A stretch of DNA of 40,294 bases from Escherichia phage vB_EcoP-U8. The position numbers and the translations under genes are program-made. The DNA is taken from sequence record MT862763.1, one strand, 5' to 3'. The notes below the pieces were generated by a model. The model had not been told where the DNA came from. It made no database searches and saw nothing but the letters and a program-made list of their open reading frames with translations. Below, one piece after another: positions 2,114-37,670 of this stretch (positions within the stretch are counted from its first letter, which is position 1; the number at the start of each line of letters is the position of its first letter).

Positions 2114-4795
2114 TTAAGCGAATGCAAAGTCTGAAGACAAGATGTCTTCGATATTCAGTTTACCTTTCTTCGGAAGCTCAGGCAACTTGTCTCTCTGGCT
2201 CTCGTGAAGCTGGTATTCAAACTGCTCGTAGAAGTCAAGCAGCACATCGTTGTCGCGGTAGGTCTCGACCATCGTCTCACGGACTCCACGGAACAGATAC
2301 TCAGCGTCAGCCGGGATGGTCCCGAAGCTATCGTGAATCACTGCGAATGACATCACGCCATATTTGCGGTGCGTGTGTACTACAGTCTTGCGGAGGTGGC
2401 TACCATCTTGTGAGTGGACGAAGTTCGGGCTAATGCCTGACTCCTGCTTGTGCTTGTCCAGCTCTTTCTTCGTGCCTTTGTTGACGGTAGGCTGAAGGTT
2501 GAATGACCCTAAGAACATCAGGTTCAGACGAGTGGTGTCCTTCTTGCGGTATTCCTGCCAGACAGGGAAACCATCAGGTGTGACCCAGTGTACCGGAAGA
2601 CAAGGCTTCAGGATTTCTCCAGTCTTCTTGTCCTTCACTTCAGCAGCAAGCAGCTTGGCAGCACCCTGAAGCCATTTCATCGCGTCAACCGCAGCAACTA
2701 CGGTCACACTCACAGCTTCCCAAATCATCTTAGCCATGAAGCGAGATGCTTGGCTTGGTTCAGTGAACATAGCGCCAGACCCTGAGTCAATCGCTGGCAT
2801 CACGATGTCCTCGTAAACTTGGTCTGCGAAGCCGTACTCTTTCGACCCGTAGGCCAGAGTCATGACCGAACGCTTAGTGACCTTTCGTGACATACCGTAG
2901 GTCAGCCACTGACGGGCAAGCTCTCGTGTCCCCAGCTTGAGACGCTCGGTAATCTCACCAGTTTTCTTGTCCTCGTGAGTTACCATCTCGTTGTCCGTAC
3001 CGTTAACCAGTAGGACTTTAAGCTCCTCCTCAATGCGGTCAGACACGATGCGGTAGATGTCTTGGACCTTACCGGATGGCGTCAGGTTTACTGCATGTCC
3101 ACCGATGTGGTCGCGAAGCATAGCGCTGAAGTGCTGAATCCCAGAGCAGGACCCATCGAACGCTATCGGCAGCGAGCAGGAGTAAGACAAGCCGTGGTGC
3201 ATTACGCCAGCATACTCGAAGCAGAACGCTAGGAAGCAGAACGGAGAGTCTAACTTGCCCCACCACTCAATGCTATCCATCGGTGCCTTGGCAGCAGCCA
3301 TGATGTTGTCGTGGTTATCTTCCACCCACTTGATACGCTCCTCGAAGGTGACTTTATCGACACCCGCGCAGTTTGCACCGTGGACCTTCAGCCATTTGAA
3401 ACCATCAGCACCAATAGGCTTACCGACTGCCAGAGTCAGAAGACCCTTTTGCATGTCGTTACCCTGAGGGTTGAACATCGGCACAGCGTAGACGCGACCG
3501 CGCCAGTCCATGTTATACGGGAACCAGATGGCCTTGAACTGAGAGAACTTGTTCGCTTGGTTGACGATAAAGCTCAGTGACAATCTTCGTGACTGTCTGG
3601 CCTTCTCGCGGCGATAGATACCAGCAGCAGCCTTCTTCCATGCCTTGAGTTCTTCTTCAGTCTCACCCGCATAGTCCTCAGGCTTCAGCGGTTCCATCTG
3701 AGGGATGTCATCAATAGGCGTGTTGTTCAGCTTCTCGACCATGTTCACCACTTCCAGAACCTTCTTGTTCACTTTCCAAGGTGTATTCTGAATGATGTTC
3801 ACAGCGTCATAGACTTCAGGCATATACACGTCTTCGTAGCGTGCTACCGCAGACTTAGACCCTAAGCGAATCAGTGGTAATGGTCTGCGTCCTTTGGCCC
3901 AGTACCCACCGCCTACGACACCAGTCCACGGCTTAGGTGGAACGACGCAAGGCTGGTAGACTGGAGCTATACCCGCAAGGCTGAATCCTCGTTGTGCCAT
4001 CTTCTTGACCCAGAAGTCTGACAGGTGGACCATCTCAACGTCAGCCGCTGCATTGCCAGCACCGTAACGCTTAAGCTCGACCAGTTGTGTGGACTGGATG
4101 ACAATCTCCAGCATCTTGATTCCAACGTGGACAGCCTCGGTCGGACTCCAAGTCCCCCACGCATCTTCCAGTTGGCCTTGCTCCAGCATGGATGCCTCGA
4201 CCGCTTGCATGTAGGCTTTCTTGTAGGACGCCCCGGCCCGCTTATTCAGGTTATCAGCTATCGCCTTCTTGAAGTGCTCTTTCTCCTTGTCACGGATGCG
4301 ACCGAAGCGGATTTCGTCCTCAAGTGTGCGACCTATCGCTGAGGCCATCGGTGTAATCGGTATCCCTTCAGGCTTGACCAGCTTGGAGAGTATGACCTTC
4401 AGTATGATAACCGCAGCAGACTCGCAGGAGATGCGCAAAGAGCGGACCTTTACGGCCTTCTCTTCAGTGCTCAACATGGTGAACGCTACGCTCGGACGAG
4501 AGGTTGACAGCTTCCCGTCTGGACCTTCATGCCACTCCTTGACGGCTTGCGCAATCTTAGGGACCAGAGTCTGCATCAAAGGCTTGGCGACCTGATTGTC
4601 TGCCAGTTCCCCTCGCTCAGTCTGTCTCTCAAGGTTCTTGATGAAACGTCGCTCGCCTTCAGTGTATGCCTCGTGCTCAAGCTGAAGCTGTTTGACTGCA
4701 AGGTCTTGCCCGTAGTGGTCAGCCAGTAGGTTAAACGGCTCAATGGCGTTCGACACATCAGAGAAGTCGTGCTTGTCAATAGAGATGACGCTCAT
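2114..4795 (-). CDS. Single-subunit DNA-directed RNA polymerase (T7 gene 1-like)
   Basis: 893 aa; collinear with T7 RNAP as recalled (MSVISIDKHDFSD..., ...ILSSDFAFA C-terminus, NMDWRGRVYAV, HDSFGT motifs). Confidence 0.97.
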   Translation of the reverse strand: MSVISIDKHDFSDVSNAIEPFNLLADHYGQDLAVKQLQLEHEAYTEGERRFIKNLERQTERGELADNQVAKPLMQTLVPKIAQAVKEWHEGPDGKLSTSRPSVAFTMLSTEEKAVKVRSLRISCESAAVIILKVILSKLVKPEGIPITPMASAIGRTLEDEIRFGRIRDKEKEHFKKAIADNLNKRAGASYKKAYMQAVEASMLEQGQLEDAWGTWSPTEAVHVGIKMLEIVIQSTQLVELKRYGAGNAAADVEMVHLSDFWVKKMAQRGFSLAGIAPVYQPCVVPPKPWTGVVGGGYWAKGRRPLPLIRLGSKSAVARYEDVYMPEVYDAVNIIQNTPWKVNKKVLEVVNMVEKLNNTPIDDIPQMEPLKPEDYAGETEEELKAWKKAAAGIYRREKARQSRRLSLSFIVNQANKFSQFKAIWFPYNMDWRGRVYAVPMFNPQGNDMQKGLLTLAVGKPIGADGFKWLKVHGANCAGVDKVTFEERIKWVEDNHDNIMAAAKAPMDSIEWWGKLDSPFCFLAFCFEYAGVMHHGLSYSCSLPIAFDGSCSGIQHFSAMLRDHIGGHAVNLTPSGKVQDIYRIVSDRIEEELKVLLVNGTDNEMVTHEDKKTGEITERLKLGTRELARQWLTYGMSRKVTKRSVMTLAYGSKEYGFADQVYEDIVMPAIDSGSGAMFTEPSQASRFMAKMIWEAVSVTVVAAVDAMKWLQGAAKLLAAEVKDKKTGEILKPCLPVHWVTPDGFPVWQEYRKKDTTRLNLMFLGSFNLQPTVNKGTKKELDKHKQESGISPNFVHSQDGSHLRKTVVHTHRKYGVMSFAVIHDSFGTIPADAEYLFRGVRETMVETYRDNDVLLDFYEQFEYQLHESQRDKLPELPKKGKLNIEDILSSDFAFA

Positions 4796-8074: not shown

Positions 8075-9838
8075 CTAGTGGAACGTAACGTAGTGCCCTA
8101 GTCCAAGCTCGTCGTCCGTATCGTGAGTTACCCGGACCCCATTGTCCCAGAACTCAGTGTGGATGGACTCGAAGCCTTTCCGTGGGTTCTCCATCTGTTC
8201 CTCCAGCCACTCCTCAGTGACTTCACGTTCTCCTTTGTTGGCATCCTTAGCCATAGACTCAACGAAGAACTGTACACCGATAGCCAGCGCATCAAGTCGG
8301 TCATCGTGTGCCAAGGCCCCACGTTCACGAGAGATACGGGTCATCTGATAGAAGAGAGAGTAGATAGGGTTACGAACACCATCCTTGTCAGAGGCTGTCT
8401 GGTAGTCTTGGACGATAGCAGCAGCGTTGACGATAAGTCGGTGAGACCCCATGATAGGCTCCAGAACGTCACAGATGCGGAGTTCTTTCTGACCCTTACT
8501 CTTCACTTCAGTTACAGCCGCAGGATGGATACGGGCCGCTACAGGCTTGAATAACTCAAGGTACATACCATCACCGAAGTTACCCTCAATGACGTATTCG
8601 TTGACCTTCCACTTACGACCAATCTTAGCCAAGGCTTCCAGAGTAGAGTCTTCATAACCACCACGCATACCGCCTACTTCCATAGCGAAGATGTAGCCGT
8701 TGAGCTGATACAGTACCGCATAGCCAGTTTCATCCTTACCACGACCACTAGGGTCAATGACCAGAATCTTCTGGGTGTACGAGCTGAAGGCAGAACCTAC
8801 AGTCTGATACGTGTGGTATGAGTCACCCATGAGTCCAACGTTAGGGACGTCCTCACGCTTGTTCTGAGGGTTAGGCAACCATTGGTAGACCATTGGACTA
8901 GACGCTGGGTCCAAGTCCGCTACGATAAGGTCACGGAGCTTCAGAGGGTACTTCTCAGCATCACTCAGGTTCGGGTTAAGCATGAACTGTAGAGCGAAGC
9001 CAGCTTTACCATAGGACAGCTCACGTTCCTTCAGGTCCGTATCATCGAATCGTACCTCATCGGTCGGACGCCAGTAGAAGGACTCAGGGTCCTCTTCCAG
9101 TTCTGCCTGAAGCATAGGAGCCAGACGGTCGCCGTAAGACTGCCAGTCCTTCCTGTCGCGTGGGTAACGAGCAGGCCAGATAGTAGTGGTGTACCCACGA
9201 CCTTCCAACTCACGGTACAGGGTCATCTCGTTCTGAGGAGTACCCAGATAAATGATTGTGCCTCCCGGCTTCAGGATAGCGTCGAACTCTTTCACAAGCT
9301 CTGACAGACGGTCTCGTGCAGCCTGAGTCGCAGAGTTATTAGGAACCTCCACGTCATCTGCAATCAGGATGTCAGCACGACTACCAGTCAACTGACCAGT
9401 GATACCAACAGACTTAACCGAAGGTGAGTGGTCTGGCTTGGCTGGCCCAACGTCGAAGCTAATAACAGCATCTCGCTGTCCCTGCTTAGGTTTGAGTTCC
9501 TGAAGCTGAGGCATGAGGTCGATGATTCGCTTGATGAATATGGAGTTAGCATCGGCTCGTTCCTTTGAGGCCGACACAATCATGAACTTCAAGTCTGGGT
9601 TGTTCCATAGTTTCCAGACCACGAATGCACACGTAATGAATGACTTCCCGATACCACGGAACGCCTGAAGGATGAAACGCCTGTTGTCCCCAGCCGATAG
9701 TTTCTTCGCCATGTCAATCTGACAGCGAGTCGGGACTGGGAGCGACAGAGCTTTCCACAGGACGAACAGGAAGAACACGAAGTCGGCCTTCATACGTGCC
9801 GTCATAAGCGCCTGACGCGCCGCTAAGTCTTGACTCAA
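8075..9838 (-). CDS. Terminase large subunit (T7 gp19-like DNA maturase B)
   Basis: 587 aa; collinear with T7 gp19 as recalled ([18 protein letters not shown] Walker A region, [19 protein letters not shown]). Confidence 0.95.
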
Positions 9839-10302: not shown

Positions 10303-10674
10303 TCAGAATCGACGTACAAGCGTCTTCTCTAGGTATGAAACAGCCCGCTGGACACTAGATGTAGTATCTCCCAGTGCGCCAATTGCTGCATTGCACTTGC
10401 GGCATAAAACCCCTCTAATCACCCCAGTGGAATGACAGTGGTCAATACACGCAGAGTCTGTATCTCCTTTCTTCCCACCTACTTTAAGCGGAGTCTTGCA
10501 AATCTCGCATGAGCTTCCCACCGAGTGCATCAGGTCCTCGAACTGTTCAAGCGTGAGACCATATAGGCTCTTTATCTGCGAAATGCGCTTAGTCCTCTTT
10601 CTTCGTTCCTCCCGTTCCTCTCGTAATTTACGAGCAGCTTGAACGTTAGCCTTTATAACATCTTCCGATACCAT
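10303..10674 (-). CDS. Endonuclease VII-family protein (putative homing endonuclease) between gene 18 and 18.5
   Basis: CEICK...IDHCHSTGVIRGVLCRKCN, the Cys/His pattern of T4 endo VII-type proteins; SD AGGAGGTGGT before ATG. Confidence 0.75.
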   Translation of the reverse strand: MVSEDVIKANVQAARKLREEREERRKRTKRISQIKSLYGLTLEQFEDLMHSVGSSCEICKTPLKVGGKKGDTDSACIDHCHSTGVIRGVLCRKCNAAIGALGDTTSSVQRAVSYLEKTLVRRF

Positions 10675-11252: not shown

Positions 11253-14108
11253 TTAGCCCCTACCTCCACAACCTTCAAGTTTATCCAGTCGTGTTTCAAT
11301 CCTGTCGCAGCGACGTCGCTGATAAGCGGCCTCCAACCAGAAACACTGATCTGGACGAATGCCCCAGCGATTACCGGCAGCTCTAGTAAGTAGGGTATTA
11401 CCGGTTTCCACTTGACGGGTAACTTCGGTATCGACACCATCAATATTAACAGTGATAACCTCATCAACGAACTCAGGTTCATACTCATCTTCCCACTCGT
11501 CATAGCAAAGCAGACCGAAGGTAGTACCATCCAAACCATGCTTTATGAAGGTATCACGAACTTGCTGGGCAATTACCCCGAAATGCCAACGAGCAGAATC
11601 TTCACCTTTAGCCGCAATAGAAGATAACCACTTGTACGTGATTATCTGCACGTCGCCCCAGGCATCAAGGATATCATCCGAGATTTCAAACGGGTAAGTT
11701 TTTTCACGGGAGTCGGACGTATTAATAGTACCAATCGCTGCGAAGACTTGAGCCACACGTAATGCTGGGTTGCCTAAATTGTAAGCGTTATCTGTGTATG
11801 GACGTAGAGATGTATTATCTATACGCCATCGAATAGTGCCACCTACGGTTTCGGGCGACGGATTAGTAGCAAAACTAATAGACGTAGCACTCTTAAATAC
11901 CGACGATCCACCACCTAAGATAAGAGAATGTGCAGATGCGGAACTTTGTTGATCGAGGACAAGAATCTGTTCTGATTCGGTTAAAGTTTTATTACCGAAA
12001 GCCCTAGCTGCAATTCGACCTTGGGTTAATGCACCAGAGTCAGTATTATTCAGGGTTAAGCGATAAGTCTCTAAACCGATAGCCCCAGTAATTACGGTAT
12101 AACCGGAAGTGTCATAAGTTACACGCACAGTCTTACGGGTAGTTGGCCCAGTCTGATCTATAGAGAAGCTCTGATTATTCAGGTTGCTGATATGAAGCTC
12201 TATCCCAATTGGGTAGGCAACTCCATCCAGATCTGTAAGACCGGTGCTTGACGTATAGATAGTAACTGCCTTCTGCCCAGACAGCCGCATAAAGTCCAAT
12301 ACTGCTGACATTGAAGTCATGGCACTACCGGTCAGAGGGTTATAGAGTACGTCGCCTGCGAGGATTCGTGGATAAACCCCAGAAGCCATCCGAATGGTAT
12401 CGTAACCTGGAGATACCGTTGTCACCGCAGAAAAATCCAAGTCTGGGGAGTTGGAATACTCTTTGGTAATTAGGATCCCATGCGTATACGCATTCGAGGC
12501 GGTTCGGTTGTTATAGATCCATAAGGTGAACACCTCACCATTTGAATAGCAGATGCCCTCATTCTCTATACGAGAAGTCGTTAAGCCTTTAGCGTCCAGA
12601 ACACTAATAAAACCAGTAGGGGGCATTACTGCCTCCACCATTTTGTGCCCGTCAGTGCTGAATGCTTTTACTCCCTGATAATTAGTAGGTGCTTCCACAG
12701 TTGTTCCTGTAATGTAAACACCACCGAATGCCATAATCAGAACACCCGGAGCTAAACAGATTGCTTGTCGCTTAGTTTGAAGCGGCCCGTAATCAGTAGT
12801 AGTTGTCGTGATGTATCCAGCATCATACGGAGAAAATTCCGTGAAACCAGTTAATGCAAATGCGGAGTTGAAGTACGCAATAACATTACGTTGACGGTTA
12901 ATGCCCAACGCTGGGATGGCCTGTTCAACTGCCCACATTCCATTATGGAAGGAGAACTGGTTATACAGACCCACTTGGTGTAACGCTGTATAGCTAATCG
13001 TGGTGCCATAGGTCACTGCTGAGATATCAAACTCAGCTAAGTTACCATCGTAGGATCCAAGGAATAACTTAAGTGAACCATAGTAATTGGTTACGATAAT
13101 CCCCTCGGATACCGCAGAACCATTTACCCCTGTGCCTCCATTATTAGTCTGGAGATACCCTAAGTATTCACCTTCACCTGAGTAAACTACAACGAAACGT
13201 TCCGTAGCTGCGTTGTTACTTGGGCCATATGCAATGTAGATATTGCCATCATCCCCGATACAGAATGACCCCGGATAAATAAACGTCCAGTCAGGGTGCG
13301 CCGCCAGAATAGCATCGTAATCTGGGAATAGTAATGGCAGGTCAAAACTAATTTCTTTTTTATCTGCGCCAGAATTAGCCCAACGGCTGCTCAGGACTGT
13401 AGACAGTGTTTCCCCGTTTTTTGTGCCGATTAAATTTGTTCCGGTTGGTTTTGCAATATCGGCGCGCAATGACGCATCACCAACACTAACCCACGCACCC
13501 AAACCAACGCCGCCAGACGTTTCAGGAGTTGAACCAACAGGCACTGTTTTTGGCAGTCCACCATCCCAGCGGTAATACTCACCATCAGCTTCCCATAGCA
13601 GGACCTCGTTCCATGTTGTAATGTTGATGCCTTTCTCGAAGGAGCGACGGGTAATATAGCCGATTCGACCAGATGCCTGGATATTATCAGCGATTCGTCG
13701 TGCTTCGTCCTCGCTATCCTTAGCGTTGCCAGCAGAGCTACCAGCAGCATCTGCATATTCCTTCACTAAGTCAACCGTTTGGTCTCGACCTTCTTCTGCA
13801 ATATGGATAGCCTGAAGCTCTGAATTTGTCAGGTCACTAGCTGTCAACACTGAGCCATTCCTGAAATCTACCACTAAGTCAGTTCCAGTCTGACGGTGAA
13901 TACGAACTATGTCGAAACCTGATTGGTCAACCAACATCTCAATCATCGTTGGATTAAGGAATCGGTAATCTCGACCAACTTCCAGTACACGGTTCAGGGT
14001 AGGGTTAGAGCTATTCACCAGCGTAACAACAACAAACGTTCTGGATAGGTAGTCGAACTCAATCCTGTACTGAGTGTTTCCTGAAGGGAATTGTGTAATC
14101 GTGGACAT
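11253..14108 (-). CDS. Tail fiber/tailspike (gp17-like N-terminal adapter, divergent distal domain, C-terminal chaperone-like domain)
   Basis: 951 aa vs 553 in T7; first ~150 aa match T7 gp17 N-terminus (FVVVTL, LVVDFRNGSVL); C-terminus contains NTSDSREK...WHFGVIAQQV resembling intramolecular chaperone (peptidase S74-like) domains. Confidence 0.9.
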   Translation of the reverse strand: MSTITQFPSGNTQYRIEFDYLSRTFVVVTLVNSSNPTLNRVLEVGRDYRFLNPTMIEMLVDQSGFDIVRIHRQTGTDLVVDFRNGSVLTASDLTNSELQAIHIAEEGRDQTVDLVKEYADAAGSSAGNAKDSEDEARRIADNIQASGRIGYITRRSFEKGINITTWNEVLLWEADGEYYRWDGGLPKTVPVGSTPETSGGVGLGAWVSVGDASLRADIAKPTGTNLIGTKNGETLSTVLSSRWANSGADKKEISFDLPLLFPDYDAILAAHPDWTFIYPGSFCIGDDGNIYIAYGPSNNAATERFVVVYSGEGEYLGYLQTNNGGTGVNGSAVSEGIIVTNYYGSLKLFLGSYDGNLAEFDISAVTYGTTISYTALHQVGLYNQFSFHNGMWAVEQAIPALGINRQRNVIAYFNSAFALTGFTEFSPYDAGYITTTTTDYGPLQTKRQAICLAPGVLIMAFGGVYITGTTVEAPTNYQGVKAFSTDGHKMVEAVMPPTGFISVLDAKGLTTSRIENEGICYSNGEVFTLWIYNNRTASNAYTHGILITKEYSNSPDLDFSAVTTVSPGYDTIRMASGVYPRILAGDVLYNPLTGSAMTSMSAVLDFMRLSGQKAVTIYTSSTGLTDLDGVAYPIGIELHISNLNNQSFSIDQTGPTTRKTVRVTYDTSGYTVITGAIGLETYRLTLNNTDSGALTQGRIAARAFGNKTLTESEQILVLDQQSSASAHSLILGGGSSVFKSATSISFATNPSPETVGGTIRWRIDNTSLRPYTDNAYNLGNPALRVAQVFAAIGTINTSDSREKTYPFEISDDILDAWGDVQIITYKWLSSIAAKGEDSARWHFGVIAQQVRDTFIKHGLDGTTFGLLCYDEWEDEYEPEFVDEVITVNIDGVDTEVTRQVETGNTLLTRAAGNRWGIRPDQCFWLEAAYQRRRCDRIETRLDKLEGCGGRG

Positions 14109-14154: not shown

Positions 14155-14177
14155 GTTTCCTATAGTGATAGTTTAGT
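14155..14177 (-). promoter_or_regulatory. Phage RNA polymerase promoter (phi17 position)
   Basis: CCTATAGTGATAGTTTAG at 14159..14176; overlaps gene 16 stop codon; 50 nt upstream of gene 17 ATG. Confidence 0.75.
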
Positions 14178-17100
14178 CCTTGATGTGGATGCCTTGCTCC
14201 TCAAACGTTCCAAGCAGCAGCTTCTGGGTAATGGGGTCGTTCGGAACCAGTTCACGGAACGTATTATACATCCCGGTCATGTAGTCACGCTCGTTGACAC
14301 GAGTATCAGCCTTGAGGTAGCCAGCCAAGTTGTAAGCCGAAGCGCCAACGTTAGCAGCATATCCGAAAGCTGGAACCTGCTCCAAGAAGTTACCAACAAC
14401 ATTCATCACAGGGTCACTTGTAGCTGCACCATACGCGATGGCACGCTCAGGCTTCTCTGTAGGAGAACGAGGTAGGATAGAAGAACGGAGCATCTTAGTG
14501 TCCTCATATCCAGCGATGCCTCCCAGAATGTTAGCTACCCCAAGTGGGCCACCAAGATGTGAACTACGGGACAGGGCCGCATAGCCAATCATCGTTGGGT
14601 CCAGAGCTTGCTTAAGGTAGTCACGGTCTCGACCATCCTGCATAGCATAAGCCTTGACATGCGCCTGAGCCATGTAGTAGATACCAGCCAGACCCATAGA
14701 CATCACGGTCGACAGTGCAGCGTCAATCGCTCTGTTGTTCTTCGTGGCGTTATAGAAGGTTCGCATGGTTCTCCCATTGATAGACTTGATGACGAAGTTC
14801 TTAAACTGAAGGACAGTCTTAGCGAGAGGACCATAAGCCTTGGCGTCCATGTTTGACAGCTTATGAGGCCGGAGTAACGTCTCGTCAGCGATGGTGTCAC
14901 CCATACGCCACAGGTCCATAGCCCTTGGGTCCTGACTAAACGCCTTCTTATCCTTGATGGTGTACTTCCCGTCTGGACCACGAGTCACTGACTCACGGAT
15001 TAGGGACTTAATACCCTTCCACTGCTCGTCAGAGATACCAGCGGTCTTCAGCCAGCGGTCATCAAACTTACGCTTACTACCAGTCAGACTATGCTCCACG
15101 ATGTCAGACAGGAAGCCTTGACGTCCAGCATCTAACAGGTAGTTTGTCGTACCGTTGAGGACTTTAGTGAACGGAGAGCGTACTGCAAGTTCACCAGTGT
15201 AATACTTGGCAGTCCCCAGAGCTGTGGCTGTACCACTACCTAGGTCACTGTAAGATCTCAGACGGTCAATGACATCCTGTTTAGACGGACGGATTGAGTC
15301 ATCCAGTTCCTTACCGAAGATAACATTGTGCAGGTCCTTAATCTCTGAGGCCCCTACCTTCTTGTTACGGAAGGCTAGGTCACGGAACATAGGGACTCCA
15401 TGTAGCAATGCACGAACGTTACCACGAGCTAGCATACCACCAATCTCCGTTAAGTTCTGAACACCCATGTAGGCATTCTTAGCGAAGAACGATAGGTCTG
15501 TCATTGTGCGCATCACGGTAGCGAAGGCAGCATCGTCAGCACCATCACGTCGGGCACGACCAGTGAGAATCTTCAAGGTGTCACGTAAGGTCGAGACCTC
15601 ACCTTTCAACTTGCCGTCATCACCAGCCTTGTTCATCATGGTCTCAACCAAGTCCTTCATATCCTTCGTGGTTTTGCCTGTACCAGCCATGATAGCAATA
15701 TCGCCATTAACTCGACGGTTGTAGGCCGGGACAATCTTGTCCATGTCCCACTCACGCAGGTTGTTGACACTGAAGGTCTGACCGTTAGGCAGGACGATTG
15801 ACATATCACTATCGAACAGGTTACGAGCCTCAAGGAAGCTGTTGTTCTCCAGACCAACCAGGCCGTTGATGTTCTCTTCCATTACGGATGAACGTTCGAA
15901 CTGCTCGGTGTGAGAGATACCATAAGCCTTATCGTTTGCGTACTTATCTACCGCAGCCGCAAGTCCTTCTGGAGTCAACGTAGGGTCAGCCTCTAAGAGT
16001 GCCTCGTCCACACGTTTCTTGACCTCAGGTCGAGACGCATAGCTGGTCAACCATGACTTCTTGATGGCCTCCTGTAGTGCCTCTGGACTTCCAAGCTCCT
16101 TGATGTACAGCTCCTTCATCTGTTTGCTATACACATGCGGGACGTAGGTTCCCTTGAAGCGGCTACCCGGAAAGATAGACTGAGCGTCTGGACGACCAAA
16201 CATCGCTGGGTTCTCCATCATCTCACGCTTGGCGTCGAACTGGTTCTTCAGTAGGTCATAGACTTTCAGTTCTCCAGGAGTCAGTTCAGCCTTCAGGTTT
16301 CCGCTACCGTCTTCGATAGCCATAGACACACGCTGGTAGATGTCCTGACGGAATGCGCCAGAGTCTCGCCAGAATGCAGTCTGGAAGTACGGGTCCTTTA
16401 GTGCCTCAGTAACCGCATCGTCGATGTCGTTGTAGAACCGATGGTCCACAGAACGAAGTCTCTCGAACACGTCTGACGCAGTTGTCCCGATTTTACCTGA
16501 GGCCCCAGACTGCATACCAGTAGGTGAACGCACTAAGTCAGCAGCTACTCCACGAATCTCAGGGTTCTCAGACCGAAGCAGCTTCAGGCCAATCTCGGTA
16601 AGTCCACCAAGGTTCACACCAGCAGCGGCACGTTCCGGCTCAATCACTTCGTCAAAGACTTGACGTGTCTTAGGGTTCAGAGGGTTCTCACCAATCAGGA
16701 TTGAACCGTCTTCCAGTCGTACACTTCCCGGCTCATTCGGAACGTCAGCGAACTTAACGCCTTGATGACTAAAGGTCTGCTCACCTTCCTGAATAGGTAG
16801 ACGAGATAGGTCCTGACCATCAACGTTACGAGCAGTCTCACGAGCTTCCAGACGTGTAGCTGGACCAGCGAACTCATTAGTGTTTCGACCTAAGGCTCTG
16901 CCTAATCCATCAGCGATAGCAGTCATACCTCCACCGAAGAGAGCACCACCAAGGATAGCCTCAGCCACATGAGCATCCCCACCAGCCACTGATGTACGGG
17001 CCATCTCTGACACACCAGCAAGTGCTCCAGATTGAGCAGCCACGGTGAACATCTTATTGACCAGCTTAGCACCTTTACCAACCTGTCCAGCAATAGGAAC

Positions 17101-18060
17101 GTATGTCAGAGGGTCCACGCCAGCACCAATAACACCAGCAGCTAACTGAGCGCCAGTCCCAGCCTTGGCCTTCTCTTGGTCCAACTTCTGGTTCTCAATC
17201 GCCAAGTTAATAAGCTCAGTCAGGTTCTGAGGGGAGCCACCAGTAATGACTCCGTAATACTGAGGCAGAACCCCAGCGTTACGAATCTGGTCCAGCTCCT
17301 CACGAGACCACTTATGGTTGTTCCATCGCGTCGGGTTGAACACATCGCCAATGACATCCAGTGAGTCCTCAGTCTGACCAGCTCTGATAGCCACGCCGAC
17401 CATAGAGTTCTTCACTTCAGCTTCTGTAGCCGCACCGAAACCGAACCACGTAGAGCGATCCTCTCGTTCCTGCATGGTCTCGCCAGTAGCCTTATAGAAC
17501 ATCTCACCGAACGATTCGTTGGGAGCTTCAGGTGCTTGACCCTCAATGTTCATACCAGCAGCGGTCGGAAGGTTCTCACCCAGAGCTACTTTAGGTTTAT
17601 CCTTGAGTCCTTCCGTGAGTGCGTCAAATACGTTAGCGCTTACTGGTGGAGTCTTTGGGCTAATGCCATTGAGTGCTCGTGCGACTCCCTTCTGATAGAC
17701 TTCAGGGTCGTACCGGGAGCCTGTCTCATGGAAGCTGATAGCTTGAGCCAGAGAAGACAGGGTGTCAGGGTCCGATAGGTCGAGACTCTGGGTCGCCGGG
17801 ATGCCCGTAGCCGAAGCCACTGACTGAATGTACGCCTGAGTGTCGTTCTCGTTCGGAGGTGCCCAACGGTTGATAATCTTCTCGATAGAGTCATAACCTT
17901 GGCGACCGTAGCTTTGAAGGTTTTTAGCTAAGGCTCGGACCCCAGATTCAGGACTATCGAAGATAACGAACGCACCATCATCACCTATAGCACCTTCCCA
18001 TTGGTCTTTGGACTTACGGAGGTTCCCGGGGTTTGAATTCCTTACTCCACGTGTCGCCAT
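14173..18060 (-). CDS. Internal virion protein D (gp16-like) with non-canonical N-terminal domain
   Basis: 1295 aa; long collinear match to T7 gp16 from about residue 250 onward (ENPAMFG, GTYVPHVY, AYNRRVNGDIAIMG); N-terminal ~120 aa does not match the T7 transglycosylase motif. Confidence 0.9.
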   Translation of the reverse strand: MATRGVRNSNPGNLRKSKDQWEGAIGDDGAFVIFDSPESGVRALAKNLQSYGRQGYDSIEKIINRWAPPNENDTQAYIQSVASATGIPATQSLDLSDPDTLSSLAQAISFHETGSRYDPEVYQKGVARALNGISPKTPPVSANVFDALTEGLKDKPKVALGENLPTAAGMNIEGQAPEAPNESFGEMFYKATGETMQEREDRSTWFGFGAATEAEVKNSMVGVAIRAGQTEDSLDVIGDVFNPTRWNNHKWSREELDQIRNAGVLPQYYGVITGGSPQNLTELINLAIENQKLDQEKAKAGTGAQLAAGVIGAGVDPLTYVPIAGQVGKGAKLVNKMFTVAAQSGALAGVSEMARTSVAGGDAHVAEAILGGALFGGGMTAIADGLGRALGRNTNEFAGPATRLEARETARNVDGQDLSRLPIQEGEQTFSHQGVKFADVPNEPGSVRLEDGSILIGENPLNPKTRQVFDEVIEPERAAAGVNLGGLTEIGLKLLRSENPEIRGVAADLVRSPTGMQSGASGKIGTTASDVFERLRSVDHRFYNDIDDAVTEALKDPYFQTAFWRDSGAFRQDIYQRVSMAIEDGSGNLKAELTPGELKVYDLLKNQFDAKREMMENPAMFGRPDAQSIFPGSRFKGTYVPHVYSKQMKELYIKELGSPEALQEAIKKSWLTSYASRPEVKKRVDEALLEADPTLTPEGLAAAVDKYANDKAYGISHTEQFERSSVMEENINGLVGLENNSFLEARNLFDSDMSIVLPNGQTFSVNNLREWDMDKIVPAYNRRVNGDIAIMAGTGKTTKDMKDLVETMMNKAGDDGKLKGEVSTLRDTLKILTGRARRDGADDAAFATVMRTMTDLSFFAKNAYMGVQNLTEIGGMLARGNVRALLHGVPMFRDLAFRNKKVGASEIKDLHNVIFGKELDDSIRPSKQDVIDRLRSYSDLGSGTATALGTAKYYTGELAVRSPFTKVLNGTTNYLLDAGRQGFLSDIVEHSLTGSKRKFDDRWLKTAGISDEQWKGIKSLIRESVTRGPDGKYTIKDKKAFSQDPRAMDLWRMGDTIADETLLRPHKLSNMDAKAYGPLAKTVLQFKNFVIKSINGRTMRTFYNATKNNRAIDAALSTVMSMGLAGIYYMAQAHVKAYAMQDGRDRDYLKQALDPTMIGYAALSRSSHLGGPLGVANILGGIAGYEDTKMLRSSILPRSPTEKPERAIAYGAATSDPVMNVVGNFLEQVPAFGYAANVGASAYNLAGYLKADTRVNERDYMTGMYNTFRELVPNDPITQKLLLGTFEEQGIHIKD

Positions 18061-18491
18061 GTCTTTCTCCTCAAGATATTTCTAATAGAAACCGTACTCA
18101 CTCCATAGCGTTCAGCCAAGAGTGAAACCTTTAGGTCGCTGGACCTTATATCACGCACACTTTCCTCAGTGAGCTTAGACGAGCCTACGAAGCATCCTAA
18201 CGCTTGGCGACCTCTAGTCACCTTATCCTTTATGTTATCAGCTTGGGTGCCAACTTCAAGGTGGCTTGGGTCTATACAGGACGGGTTGTCGCACTTATGG
18301 CGAACAACGTACCCATCCGGTATAGGACCGTTAGCAAGCTCGTAAGCAAGTCTATGCGCTCTGTATTTGACCCTGTTGACCATTATCCTTCCATATCCTT
18401 CTCCGTCTAAGTGGCCTGTAAATCGGATACAGCCAGACTCTTCAGCTACTGACAGTTCTGCCAGTCTCTCACTGGCTGTCCCGTTCTTCAT
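18042..18491 (-). CDS. HNH homing endonuclease-like protein between gene 15 and 16
   Basis: GYVVRHKCDNPSCIDPSHLEVGTQADN HNH motif; 149 aa; not present at this position in T7. Confidence 0.8.
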   Translation of the reverse strand: MKNGTASERLAELSVAEESGCIRFTGHLDGEGYGRIMVNRVKYRAHRLAYELANGPIPDGYVVRHKCDNPSCIDPSHLEVGTQADNIKDKVTRGRQALGCFVGSSKLTEESVRDIRSSDLKVSLLAERYGVSTVSIRNILRRKTWRHVE

Positions 18492-21378: not shown

Positions 21379-21765
21379 CTAATCCCCCTTCCGGCTTGTA
21401 GCCAGATAGTCAGCAGCCTTACCATCGAAATCTTCGCATTTAGAGTGGTAGTTTCTACGGGTCAGCTTTAGGTTGCAGGTATGACATAGGATTCCTCGGA
21501 CTTTCCCGGAGGTGTGACAGTGGTCAACGCATACTCCTCGGCTAGTTCCTAATGTCTTGCAGATTGCGCAGACCCCGCCCTGCTCTTTTAGGATGGAATC
21601 ATATTCTATCTGCGTAATGTGATACGTCTCGTATCCCTTGTTCTTGTGGCTCCGTCCATTATGACACAGCTTACAGGCAGAGCGTACACCACACTTAGAG
21701 TCTTTCCGTGTAGAGAACGCTTCTAGTGGCTTTTCAATTTTACAGACGGTACAGACCTTAGTCAC
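21379..21765 (-). CDS. Endonuclease VII-family protein (putative homing endonuclease) between gene 13 and 14
   Basis: GGVCAICK...[19 protein letters not shown]; GTG start with SD AAGGAGG; start overlaps gp13 stop. Confidence 0.78.
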
Positions 21766-32370: not shown

Positions 32371-32786
32371 TCCTTCTTAACAAGTTTGCGCTCACGGTTC
32401 GTCTTAATGACGTGTTCGCGTTTTGGAATACACTGTAGATGCTCTATGTTGCAGCACCCACGGTTCAAGCACAAATGGTCTATTTCGTAGCCATTTGGTA
32501 TAGGTCCGCGCCTCTGCTCCCACACCCATCGGTGGAACATGAAGGCGAACTTGTTGCCCTTCCTGTAGCTTCCCATGGAGTACCGGAAGTACCCATCTTG
32601 GTTCCTCTTGTGGGACACGCAGACGATACATCCGGTAGGCATGGTGTGGAAGCGTAGGGTCTGGGTTCGAGGGTCAATGACACTCTTTCCACGTTGGTCC
32701 AATCTTACCCTCCGTATCAAGTTCACACTTGAAGTTATAGAAGCGTCCGACCTCGCGCATCGCCTCTTGAGCAATACGGACGACAT
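32361..32786 (-). CDS. HNH homing endonuclease-like protein overlapping the 3' end of the DNA polymerase gene
   Basis: HRWVWEQRRGPIPNGYEIDHLCLNRGCCNIEHLQ HNH motif; ATG at 32786 has SD GGAG, overlapping pol by 113 nt in another frame; an internal Met at 32642 has no SD. Confidence 0.75.
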   Translation of the reverse strand: MSSVLLKRRCARSDASITSSVNLIRRVRLDQRGKSVIDPRTQTLRFHTMPTGCIVCVSHKRNQDGYFRYSMGSYRKGNKFAFMFHRWVWEQRRGPIPNGYEIDHLCLNRGCCNIEHLQCIPKREHVIKTNRERKLVKKECH

Positions 32787-34845
32787 CTTCTGCTATCTCC
32801 TGAGTACGGCACGCTATCTGCAATTCATCGTGAATCCAAGCCATTAGCGCAAAGTCGCCGTCCCATCCGTTACCGTAACCAGCCTCTTCAAGTTTCTTCT
32901 CAGTCAGTACCATCCAGTGCTTACAGACAACCGCACCGTCCCCCTGAAGTAGGGCGTTAAGTGCTGAGTGTGGAGACCGGATGTGAATACGACGACCATC
33001 CAGACCTTTCAGCCAGCGACGTTTCCACTTGACGATATTCTCACCGTCCACCCACTTAGAGTCTGAGATTAACGTATTACTCACAGCTTCCCTGAGGTCC
33101 TTGATGGCTGGTGTACCCTCAATGAATTTCTTCATCAGAGCTGAACCTTCCTTCTTACCACCGCCTACTATCAGTCCAATCTTAGCGGCCCCTGCACCAT
33201 ACAGGAACGCGTAGATGAACGTCTTAGCGTTGTTACGGAAAGCCTCATGGTCGTGGTTAGACTTATCGCGTTGGACGTTAGGTGCTAACCCAGCGTTTAC
33301 TGCGTTGGCCCAGTGGATGTCACCTTCTACCACAGTCTTCGCATATGCACCACCATCAAACGGAGCCGCTCTGTTCCCAAGACAACGAAGCTCAAGACCT
33401 GAGGCATCCACACCAACTTGAATCCAAGGGTCTGGCTTACCGTCCTTCTTGTTCCACGCTGCACCGAAAGCACCACGGCAAGTCTCACCATATGGAGCAC
33501 CGTTAGCCGGGACCTGAGCCATGTTTGGTGAACTATGGGTCGCACGTCCGGTTACTGCCCCGCATGGGTTTATTGAGCCGTGCATACGTCCGTCTGGACC
33601 TACAAGTTTCAACCATGCGTTCTTACCTTCAGCAGCCTGACCGATGCGCTTCTGGACGACCAGATATTCACGGACCAGCTCTACGCAAGCCTGAGCCTCT
33701 GCGTCTGGTAACTTAACGTGTTCTAACGTCTCGTCATCGACTACAGGTTTCCCGGTGTCAGTGAAGTCTACAGGCTCCCAGCCACGCTCCATCAGGACTT
33801 TCGCTAAGTGGTCTCCGCTTCCCGGATTAAACTCAACGTAAGTGATTGGCGTGAAAGGCGCTCCTTCCATCGTGTCTCGCGTATCACGCTCACAAGGTTC
33901 AAGACCTAAGCGTTGAGCTTTGTTCTTCGGCTTCTTAAAGATGCCACCGACCTTAGGATACACGACTCGCGGATACTTCGGAAGGTCCTTGCCAGTCCGT
34001 GGGTGCTTGAAGAACTCCTTGCCTCCCTTTGGTGCGTACCAGCTACCGAAAGTCGAACGCAGCTTGTCCAGCAGCTCTGCACGTTTGACGGTTAGTTCAC
34101 GATATAAGCCTTCGACCATCTCGGTGTTCATCGGATAGCCGTTACGTTCCATCTTCGCACAGGTCCACGCAGCATCATGTTCCAGACGCAACGCATAAAT
34201 CTGGTCGAAAGCGAACTGTTCAGACTGGAAGTAATACTTGTCAGTCAGGAACTTCTTGAACAACGCCAGTGTGACCACAACGTCCTGAACGTTATAGTCC
34301 AGCATCTCCTGAGACGGGAACAACCATTCGTCCCCAGCCTTATATTCGATACCTTCTGCCTTGCACTTGGCAACGTAATCGTGTTTGTACTCACCCTTCA
34401 TCTCACCGAGACGATAACCCCAAGCCTCAAGAGACTGGCGTCCCATCATCTTAGGAGGCAGACGACCAGCTTTCACCGCGCCCATGTCTGAGAACTTAAT
34501 GTTGGGATACATCAAGCGACCCAGCACCAAGGTATCAATCATCTTGTGTTTCGGGAAGTTAAAGCGTTTCCCGAAGTACAGACGCTTCAGCTTGTCAATA
34601 GCCGGGACGTCATAGTTGATACCGTTGTGGAATACCAGCATACCATCAGGTGATGCGGCAATCTCTTCCACCTTCTGCACATACTCTTTGAAGCCACCGA
34701 CGATACCGACCATCGGAGCTACCCCATACTTAAGGGTCTCATTCGACTCGGCGTTAATCAGGACCCCACAGTGAAACTGGGAGACTGTATCAAGGAGACC
34801 GTTGGTCTCGATGTCAGAACCCCAGATACTCTTAAGGTCAAACAT
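32674..34845 (-). CDS. DNA polymerase (T7 gp5-like, family A with 3'-5' exonuclease)
   Basis: Collinear with T7 gp5 as recalled; start set at MFDLKS (GGAGG SD) rather than ORF-track start 34881; ends ...KECH. Confidence 0.97.
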   Translation of the reverse strand: MFDLKSIWGSDIETNGLLDTVSQFHCGVLINAESNETLKYGVAPMVGIVGGFKEYVQKVEEIAASPDGMLVFHNGINYDVPAIDKLKRLYFGKRFNFPKHKMIDTLVLGRLMYPNIKFSDMGAVKAGRLPPKMMGRQSLEAWGYRLGEMKGEYKHDYVAKCKAEGIEYKAGDEWLFPSQEMLDYNVQDVVVTLALFKKFLTDKYYFQSEQFAFDQIYALRLEHDAAWTCAKMERNGYPMNTEMVEGLYRELTVKRAELLDKLRSTFGSWYAPKGGKEFFKHPRTGKDLPKYPRVVYPKVGGIFKKPKNKAQRLGLEPCERDTRDTMEGAPFTPITYVEFNPGSGDHLAKVLMERGWEPVDFTDTGKPVVDDETLEHVKLPDAEAQACVELVREYLVVQKRIGQAAEGKNAWLKLVGPDGRMHGSINPCGAVTGRATHSSPNMAQVPANGAPYGETCRGAFGAAWNKKDGKPDPWIQVGVDASGLELRCLGNRAAPFDGGAYAKTVVEGDIHWANAVNAGLAPNVQRDKSNHDHEAFRNNAKTFIYAFLYGAGAAKIGLIVGGGKKEGSALMKKFIEGTPAIKDLREAVSNTLISDSKWVDGENIVKWKRRWLKGLDGRRIHIRSPHSALNALLQGDGAVVCKHWMVLTEKKLEEAGYGNGWDGDFALMAWIHDELQIACRTQEIAEDVVRIAQEAMREVGRFYNFKCELDTEGKIGPTWKECH

Positions 34846-34864
34846 GGTTAATCCTCCGTTTAGT

Positions 34865-34905
34865 CTAATCATAAAGGCCACTCTATGTGAATGACCTTTA
34901 GTCTA
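34865..34905 (-). promoter_or_regulatory. Conserved leader stem-loop element, copy C (candidate RNase III site upstream of gene 5)
   Basis: CTAATCATAAAGGCCAC-N-ATGACCTTTAGTCTA immediately upstream of pol RBS. Confidence 0.4.
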
Positions 34906-37211: not shown

Positions 37212-37670
37212 TTAGCCTCGGTCGGAAGTGACCAGTTCGTTAGTGTTAAGCCAGCGCTGCAAGTCGAAACTTGGGCAAGCCTTTGGTGCTACATCGTGGT
37301 GAGCCTTGATTTCTGCCTGAGGATACAAGTCCTTCAGGTCAGCCAGCTTGTTGCGCAGGGAGTTCATCTGGGCTGGAGTGAAGTTAGCTTCAAACTTGCC
37401 CTTAGCGTCAATTCCACCTACAAGGCAGACGCCTACAGACCGTGAGTTCCAGTCCTTAACGTGTGACCCTACGACATTGACAGGGCGTCCCTCTTCCACA
37501 GTACCATCGCGCTTGATGATAAAGTGGTAGCCTACGTCCAGCCAGCCTTGCTGCTTGTGCCACATACGGATGGTCTCTACCCCGATGTCCATCTCTGGCT
37601 TGGTTGCGCTACAGTGAACGAAGATAGCGTCAGTCCGGGACCGTGGGTTGAACTGAACCTTACTCACCAT
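37212..37670 (-). CDS. N-acetylmuramoyl-L-alanine amidase / T7 lysozyme (gp3.5-like)
   Basis: 152 aa; AIFVHCSATKP, WLDVGYHFIIKRDGTVEEGR, PKACPSFDL match T7 lysozyme as recalled. Confidence 0.95.
   Translation of the reverse strand: MVSKVQFNPRSRTDAIFVHCSATKPEMDIGVETIRMWHKQQGWLDVGYHFIIKRDGTVEEGRPVNVVGSHVKDWNSRSVGVCLVGGIDAKGKFEANFTPAQMNSLRNKLADLKDLYPQAEIKAHHDVAPKACPSFDLQRWLNTNELVTSDRG

Follow-up and report, generated by a model that had tools for sequence, protein, structure and literature searches.

An Enc34-type muralytic domain as the predicted replacement of the T7 transglycosylase at the N terminus of gp16 in a K1F-like phage

Introduction

What sits at the N terminus of the ejection protein gp16 of a T7 relative if it is not the lytic transglycosylase of T7? 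In T7, residues 1-156 of gp16 form the transglycosylase domain, with E37 as the catalytic residue, and residues 157-228 form a "molecular tape" that binds gp15 (PMC8954989). The transglycosylase is required only under certain conditions (highly cross-linked peptidoglycan), and although its catalysis is dispensable under standard conditions, the N-terminal domain is still part of the periplasmic tunnel (PMC8954989). A first-pass annotation of the genome of Escherichia phage vB_EcoP-U8 (MT862763.1) had stated that gp16 of this phage aligns with T7 gp16 over most of its length, that its first ~120 residues do not match the T7 transglycosylase, and that an alternative domain acting on the cell wall may have been swapped onto the ejection protein. 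Here, we followed up these statements by sequence comparison and structure prediction. The window, i.e., the whole stretch of 40,294 bp analyzed, has the appearance of a complete Kayfunavirus genome that is circularly permuted and runs in reverse orientation, with the genes on the minus strand.

Results

Gene model and genomic context

The region from 17700 to 18060 (minus strand) comprises codons 1-120, the 5′ end, of gene 16, and the residues quoted in the first-pass annotation (MATRGVRNSNPGNLRKSKDQWEGAIGDD...INRWAPPNENDTQAYIQ) are the true translation of the start of this gene. Gene 16 (14173..18060, minus strand) is an uninterrupted open reading frame (ORF) of 3888 nt that encodes 1295 amino acids. 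The phage is a K1F-like (Kayfunavirus) relative of T7, and PHROG 342, "internal virion protein with endolysin domain," matches gp16 at E = 0. The order of genes around gene 16 is 13, an Endonuclease VII ORF, 14, 15, an HNH ORF, 16, and 17 (tail spike), with Pfam matches to Phage_T7_Gp13 and T7_gp14 upstream and a spike with a T7 tail-type N terminus downstream. Both this position and the homology of the body and C terminus (BLASTP, phrog_342, and PDB chains) identify the product as a T7-type internal virion protein D. Gene 16 of the Kayfunavirus members CR44b, EcoDS1, and PE3-1 has 94 to 95% nucleotide identity to the gene of vB_EcoP-U8, and 246 phage records match. Furthermore, a phmmer search revealed a near-identical protein in the PDB, chain 9vvp_L ("Gp29," 1295 aa), which covers residues 1-1295; the near-identical chain is present in four copies in entry 9vvp, and a literature search found no publication on this entry. 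Presence of gp16 in the virion is supported indirectly by these four copies, by the record of the CR44b protein (94% nucleotide identity), which like those of its other structural proteins is annotated with "matches in mass spectrometry analysis," and by phage B1, whose "internal virion protein D" was identified by MS/MS.

Since the claim concerns the very start of the protein, a trivial explanation has to be considered, namely, that the mismatch to T7 is an artifact of a misplaced start codon, of a frameshift, or of fusion with an upstream ORF. Indeed, the first 19 nt of gene 16 lie within the HNH ORF upstream of it. However, the ORF of gene 16 is uninterrupted, 9vvp_L matches from the first to the last residue, and gp16 is annotated with the identical start and length (1295 aa) in CR44b, EcoDS1, PE3-1, and K1F, three of which do not have the upstream HNH gene. 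With identical gene models in the presence and absence of the HNH gene, an annotation artifact is excluded for practical purposes.

Several other genes of the window were assigned on the side. ORFs of the size of an RNA polymerase (2114-4795), a large terminase (8075-9838), and a DNA polymerase (32674-34881), all on the minus strand, are putatively assigned by size and order in the T7 layout only. The tail spike (11253-14108, minus strand, 951 aa) combines, according to Pfam, a T7 tail-fiber N-terminal domain, a TSP1/Gp66 N-terminal domain, and a C-terminal Peptidase_S74, an intramolecular chaperone of the type found on endosialidases; its central receptor-binding or enzymatic part had no Pfam match.

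Comparison with T7 gp16

In a BLASTP comparison with T7 gp16 (NC_001604; L001:3596-7552), residues 125-1295 aligned with T7 residues 152-1315 at 53% identity, in line with the first-pass annotation. Residues 1-124, on the other hand, gave no significant match to T7 gp16, its first 151 residues included. The alignments with the T7 gp16 chains 7eyb, 7k5c, and 6yt5 in the PDB (phmmer, E = 0) likewise begin at residue 125. The segment directly following this point, residues ~125-200 (17461..17688, minus strand), is homologous to T7 gp16 residues ~152-228, the gp15-binding "molecular tape," as judged from the start of the BLASTP alignment and the published T7 map (PMC8954989); identity to T7 is 38% in residues 125-250. 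Hence, the break in homology coincides with a structural domain boundary, the end of the N-terminal domain of T7 gp16, which argues for a clean replacement of one domain.

The loss of the T7 domain is also seen with profile methods. Residues 15-127 of T7 gp16 match the Pfam family SLT (PF01464) at E = 1.7e-31, but neither the whole query protein nor its residues 1-160 matched SLT or any other Pfam family at E ≤ 1, and an NCBIfam scan of both gave no match; the Enc34-type domain family described below has no model in these two libraries. A profile built from 34 sequences of the query domain and aligned with residues 1-160 of T7 gp16 by hhalign resulted in a probability of 0.08%. With neither a PF01464 match nor similarity in profile or fold to T7 residues 1-151, the N terminus does not belong to the SLT/GH23 type of T7 gp16.

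Two ways in which a T7-like enzyme could still be encoded were considered and rejected. The SPESG motif with E38-S39 might mimic E37-S38 of T7, but position 38 is variable in the 34-sequence family alignment. A relocation of the transglycosylase to gp15 or another gene, as described for the lysozyme in K1E/K1-5, was dismissed because no SLT or lysozyme domain was found in gp13, gp14, or gp15 and a six-frame tblastn search of the whole window revealed no SLT-like sequence elsewhere. A second candidate for a virion-borne murein hydrolase was not found in the window, and a six-frame search gave only one PHA02564-type domain.

Predicted family and fold of the N-terminal domain

What, then, is the N-terminal domain? 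Residues 1-124 (17689..18060, minus strand) are predicted to form a muralytic domain of the Enc34 type (PHA02564/PM2 P5-like), as indicated by phmmer, phrog_873, AlphaFold2 (AF2), and Foldseek. A phmmer search of residues 1-160 against the PDB sequences hit 7q47_A, the endolysin catalytic domain of Hafnia phage Enc34, with E = 2.5e-14 over query residues 3-123. The N-terminal segment also matches phrog_873 ("endolysin") with E = 2e-53, as well as PHROGs annotated as head protein, tape measure protein, and tail injection transglycosylase, and tblastn matches to endolysins point in the same direction.

For structure prediction, 33 database homologs plus query residues 1-150 (34 sequences) served as AF2 input and as the family alignment; the homolog search was done with residues 1-135 and returned only short stand-alone relatives, with gp16 orthologs absent. 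The first-pass annotation had proposed a structure prediction of this region as a check. The resulting model has a mean pLDDT of 91 and a pTM of 0.82 and is mostly helical, as expected for the all-helical fold of 7Q47, with a short beta hairpin at residues 24-34, in a region where Enc34 has a long loop. A Foldseek search of the PDB with the model retrieved 7q47_B and 7q47_A (E = 6.5e-10 and 1.1e-9, respectively; TM score, 0.78 to 0.79; root mean square deviation, 2.2 for chain B) and nothing else below E = 0.6; a lytic transglycosylase was not among the hits. In BFVD, a database of predicted viral structures, the fold was matched by entries named "virion protein," by a Providencia phage "internal virion protein D," and by a "tail-fiber/lysozyme" protein. 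Residues 1-124 are thus homologous to the Enc34 domain in both sequence and predicted fold.

These data also bear on the possibility that the N terminus is a highly diverged SLT/GH23 lytic transglycosylase of the T7 gp16 family and that the GenBank labels are right. Many records of close relatives are labeled "peptidoglycan lytic exotransglycosylase" or "peptidoglycan transglycosylase," and the Enc34 authors argue that the family shares a very distant ancestor with GH23/GH73 enzymes and that the Glu is in an equivalent position (PMC8943055). Nevertheless, the Pfam SLT match that is so clear in T7 is lacking in the query, the hhalign probability is close to zero, and the only fold neighbor in the PDB is 7q47, so that we regard a diverged transglycosylase as very improbable. 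The canonical lytic transglycosylase fold that, according to the first-pass annotation, would have spoken against a different domain did not turn up in either the Pfam or the Foldseek results.

Candidate active-site residues and selection

For Enc34, Glu131, Trp79, and Tyr95 are proposed to be catalytically important in a beta-N-acetylglucosaminidase mechanism; in the available text, the catalytic Glu is derived from superposition and not from mutagenesis (PMC8943055). For residue mapping, the numbering of the 7q47 chain was taken as that of the paper plus one. In the alignments, Trp79, Tyr95, and Glu131 of Enc34 correspond to W66 in RWAPP (codon 17863..17865, minus strand; cca on the plus strand, TGG on the minus strand), Y77 in QAYIQ (17830..17832, minus strand; gta, i.e., TAC), and E112 in FHETG (17725..17727, minus strand; ctc, i.e., GAG), which would make E112 the counterpart of the proposed catalytic residue. 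Across the 34 aligned sequences, Y77 does not vary, E112 is kept in at least 90%, and position 66 is W, Y, or F; it is W or Y in the gp16 relatives compared and in Enc34. N10, P11, and N13 of the RNxNPGN motif are invariant as well. The complete set W66/Y77/E112 is kept in K1F, CR44b, EcoDS1, PE3-1, and SH4, and Morganella phage phiA020 keeps the signature, including E112, with W66 replaced by Y.

A side observation concerns the ENDT motif, in which E71 (codon 17848-17850, minus strand), N72, and T74 are invariant in 34 of 34 family members and, hence, conserved more strictly than the proposed catalytic E112. The equivalent of E71 is not singled out as a catalytic residue in the available part of the Enc34 paper (PMC8943055). 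Judged from this conservation pattern, E71 might act in catalysis as a second acidic residue or might contribute to substrate binding.

Pairwise dN/dS values of codons 1-124 were 0.06 to 0.13 against three Kayfunavirus relatives, which indicates that the N-terminal domain is under purifying selection. Such selection would also be expected from a purely structural role, and it is imaginable that the domain has been kept as a part of the ejectosome with a structural or peptidoglycan-binding function, a "wing" on the gp15 tunnel, that does not cut. Activity in the family has been demonstrated for the stand-alone proteins Enc34 and M4Lys and for no gp16-borne copy, and T7 itself illustrates that the domain can have a place in the periplasmic tunnel while its catalysis is dispensable under standard conditions (PMC8954989). 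But E112, Y77, the aromatic residue at position 66, and the RNxNPGN motif are kept both in stand-alone endolysins and across gp16 relatives whose domains share only 47% identity. A domain with a purely structural role would have no need to keep the residues proposed for catalysis, and in addition, no other virion-borne candidate for a murein hydrolase was found in the window; a noncutting domain is therefore unlikely, albeit somewhat less so than a diverged transglycosylase. We favor a murein-cutting Enc34-type module. In this form, the swap of a cell-wall-degrading domain suggested by the first-pass annotation is supported by homology to 7Q47, the AF2 fold, and the kept signature.

Distribution and age of the replacement

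A tblastn search with residues 1-124 matched 803 phage records, 222 of them with at least 60% identity; among the matches listed, this band consists of gp16 genes of the Kayfunavirus clade. The other matches are diverse and include endolysins of Chi-like phages, Enc34, 9g, and JenP1, the "structural protein P5" of Mu-like Pseudomonas phages, an epsilon15-like structural protein, proteins of NO16-like and other small Vibrio phages and of Microviridae, and tape measure proteins. For comparison, the SLT-type N terminus of T7 was found in 1223 records. K1F carries the Enc34-type domain, with 87% identity in residues 1-124, and the domain is a feature of gp16 in the whole genus Kayfunavirus.

Beyond this genus, gp16 of Morganella phage phiA020 (Minipunavirus; L006 4498-8436) has an Enc34-type N terminus and is 49% identical to the query from end to end and 47% identical within the domain. 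Its distance from the query is about that of T7 in the body. Another match to the Enc34-type fold is the 1292-aa "internal virion protein D" of a Providencia phage. The matches in these two phages suggest that the two types of N terminus split the subfamily (Studiervirinae) into old lineages. The end-to-end homology of the phiA020 protein argues that the replacement is old and was inherited with the body of the protein rather than being a recent event in this genome.

Mobile nuclease genes

The ORF between genes 15 and 16 (18042..18491, minus strand) encodes a putative HNH_3 homing endonuclease of 149 aa; among 187 related records, just 16 cover it. The six genomes with the HNH gene that were examined all have one common allele of the first ~150 nt of gene 16 (…RKSKDQWEGAIG…), and five of six HNH-less genomes have another common allele (…RVSKDQWEGMTG…); the exception, HC13, is an HNH-less phage with the HNH-type allele. 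Compared to the query, the HNH-less allele is 65 to 70% identical in the first 60 nt and 89 to 100% identical at nt 301-900 in the four genomes that stay in register (SH4 has indels there). Synonymous divergence (dS) of codons 1-124 is 2 to 4.5 times that of the rest of gene 16. The pattern of alleles and dS looks like that of a homing endonuclease targeting the conserved start of the domain, with coconversion of the flanks; the presumed homing target or coconversion tract comprises the first ~300 nt of gene 16 (17761-18060, minus strand). Together with two ORFs of the Endonuclease VII family (Pfam PF02945), one at 10303-10674 (minus strand, E = 3.1e-20) and one between genes 13 and 14 at 21379-21765 (minus strand, E = 1.7e-16), where EcoDS1 has an annotated gene "13.5 endonuclease VII," three putative mobile nuclease genes are present in the genome.

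Discussion

In sum, our data point toward gp16 of vB_EcoP-U8 being a T7-type ejection protein whose N terminus is an Enc34-type, all-helical peptidoglycan glycosidase module and not an SLT/GH23 transglycosylase. From sequence homology and the predicted structure, we give this reading a probability of roughly 85%.

The activity of the family is documented for truncated forms of two endolysins, Enc34 ORF39deltaC and M4LysdeltaTMD, which degrade peptidoglycan. The Enc34 domain (CDD PHA02564) lyses outer-membrane-permeabilized Escherichia coli, Pseudomonas aeruginosa, and Hafnia alvei (PMC8943055). M4Lys of Salmonella phage BSPM4 degrades purified peptidoglycan, and the products suggest an N-acetylglucosaminidase and possibly an endopeptidase; the text of the M4Lys paper reads glucosaminidase plus endopeptidase, and one figure legend says muramidase. 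Bond specificity and catalytic mechanism of the family are thus unsettled. By analogy to these enzymes, the chemistry of the gp16 module is probably that of a hydrolytic glycosidase and not that of a lytic transglycosylase.

In our model, which follows T7 gp16 in its outline, gp16 would be packaged in the internal core and, upon infection, ejected via the tail into the periplasm, where its N-terminal module may cleave glycan strands locally, most likely by hydrolysis as an N-acetylglucosaminidase if the activities of Enc34 and M4Lys are a guide. Local opening of the murein would let the gp14-gp15-gp16 ejectosome tunnel assemble across the murein layer, with the linker after residue 125 presumably binding gp15 as in T7. 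A gp3.5-type amidase as in T7 (37212..37670) is encoded as a separate lysis enzyme. Since the transglycosylase of T7 is needed only conditionally, the contribution of the module may be small here, too; E37 mutants of T7 gp16 show a delay at 20°C and on stationary-phase cells. More speculatively, a hydrolytic swap might change the periplasmic products (reducing muropeptides versus 1,6-anhydro-muropeptides), so that Kayfunavirus and Minipunavirus members would breach the wall in a way biochemically unlike that of T7; the growth states that can be penetrated might change as well, and the HNH endonuclease might drive the exchange of domain alleles between coinfecting phages. We consider this wider scenario doubtful.

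Publications on the domain family already cover its structure and its activity, and the architecture occurs in K1F, in a PDB entry, and in hundreds of deposited genomes; that murein hydrolase modules are exchanged among podovirus ejection proteins is a recognized theme. The finding is therefore an ordinary one that will not surprise specialists, and it is correct and useful for annotation. In the searchable literature, we found no paper linking the Enc34/PHA02564 domain to gp16 or internal virion proteins, and Kayfunavirus genome papers and GenBank records continue to name the protein a "transglycosylase" or, in the papers, also "internal virion protein D." The gene is found in more than 200 deposited genomes of the Kayfunavirus type, and many of them label it "peptidoglycan lytic exotransglycosylase" or "transglycosylase" by transfer from T7. 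With a wall-cutting module of the Enc34-type family that is probably a hydrolase, the label "lytic exotransglycosylase" is probably wrong. Furthermore, the two types of gp16 illustrate cleanly, in nature, how a murein-cutting module can be exchanged, with the same body and gp15-binding linker and two alternative N-terminal enzymes, and easily grown coliphages such as K1F offer a genetic system for the mechanism and bond specificity of the Enc34 type.

Exchangeable murein-cutting modules on podovirus ejection proteins are also described for SP6 gp36, K1-5 gp38, and K1E/K1-5 gp35, and such modules can even shift between gp15-like and gp16-like podovirus proteins. SP6, K1-5, and K1E, which are likened here by description rather than by sequence comparison, differ from our case in their reported lysozyme activity. 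Structural protein P5 of PM2, GP11 of NO16 (Vinavirales), and "structural protein P5" of Mu-like Pseudomonas phages share the domain family with gp16 and resemble it in being virion associated, and PM2 P5 and NO16 GP11 share its fold. Unlike the gp16 domain, they occur either as small proteins in tailless phages that contain a membrane or as separate head or tail proteins, without fusion to a T7-type ejection protein.

The closest characterized counterpart of the domain by sequence and predicted fold is the endolysin ORF39 of Enc34 (7Q47), with E = 2.5e-14 in the sequence search, 32% identity over the Foldseek structural alignment, and a TM score of 0.78. The query shares with Enc34 and M4Lys the RNxNPGN motif, the WAPP-ENxT-AY segment, and the HExG glutamate, but its domain is shorter than that of Enc34 and lacks two of its loop insertions. 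Enc34 and M4Lys are stand-alone lysis enzymes with a transmembrane domain at the C terminus, and they attack the wall from within as infection ends. The domain described here, in contrast, forms the N-terminal end of a virion protein of 1295 aa and would work from the periplasmic side when infection begins. The other close counterpart, T7 gp16 (7EYB, 7K5C, and 6YT5), agrees with the query in gene position, length class, and sequence from residue 125 to the C terminus (53% identity), the gp15-binding linker included, and presumably in its role in the ejectosome. The difference lies in what precedes this shared body: residues 1-151 of the T7 protein are an SLT/GH23 domain with E37, and the query has in their place a 124-residue domain, predicted to be of the Enc34 type, that is unrelated by sequence.
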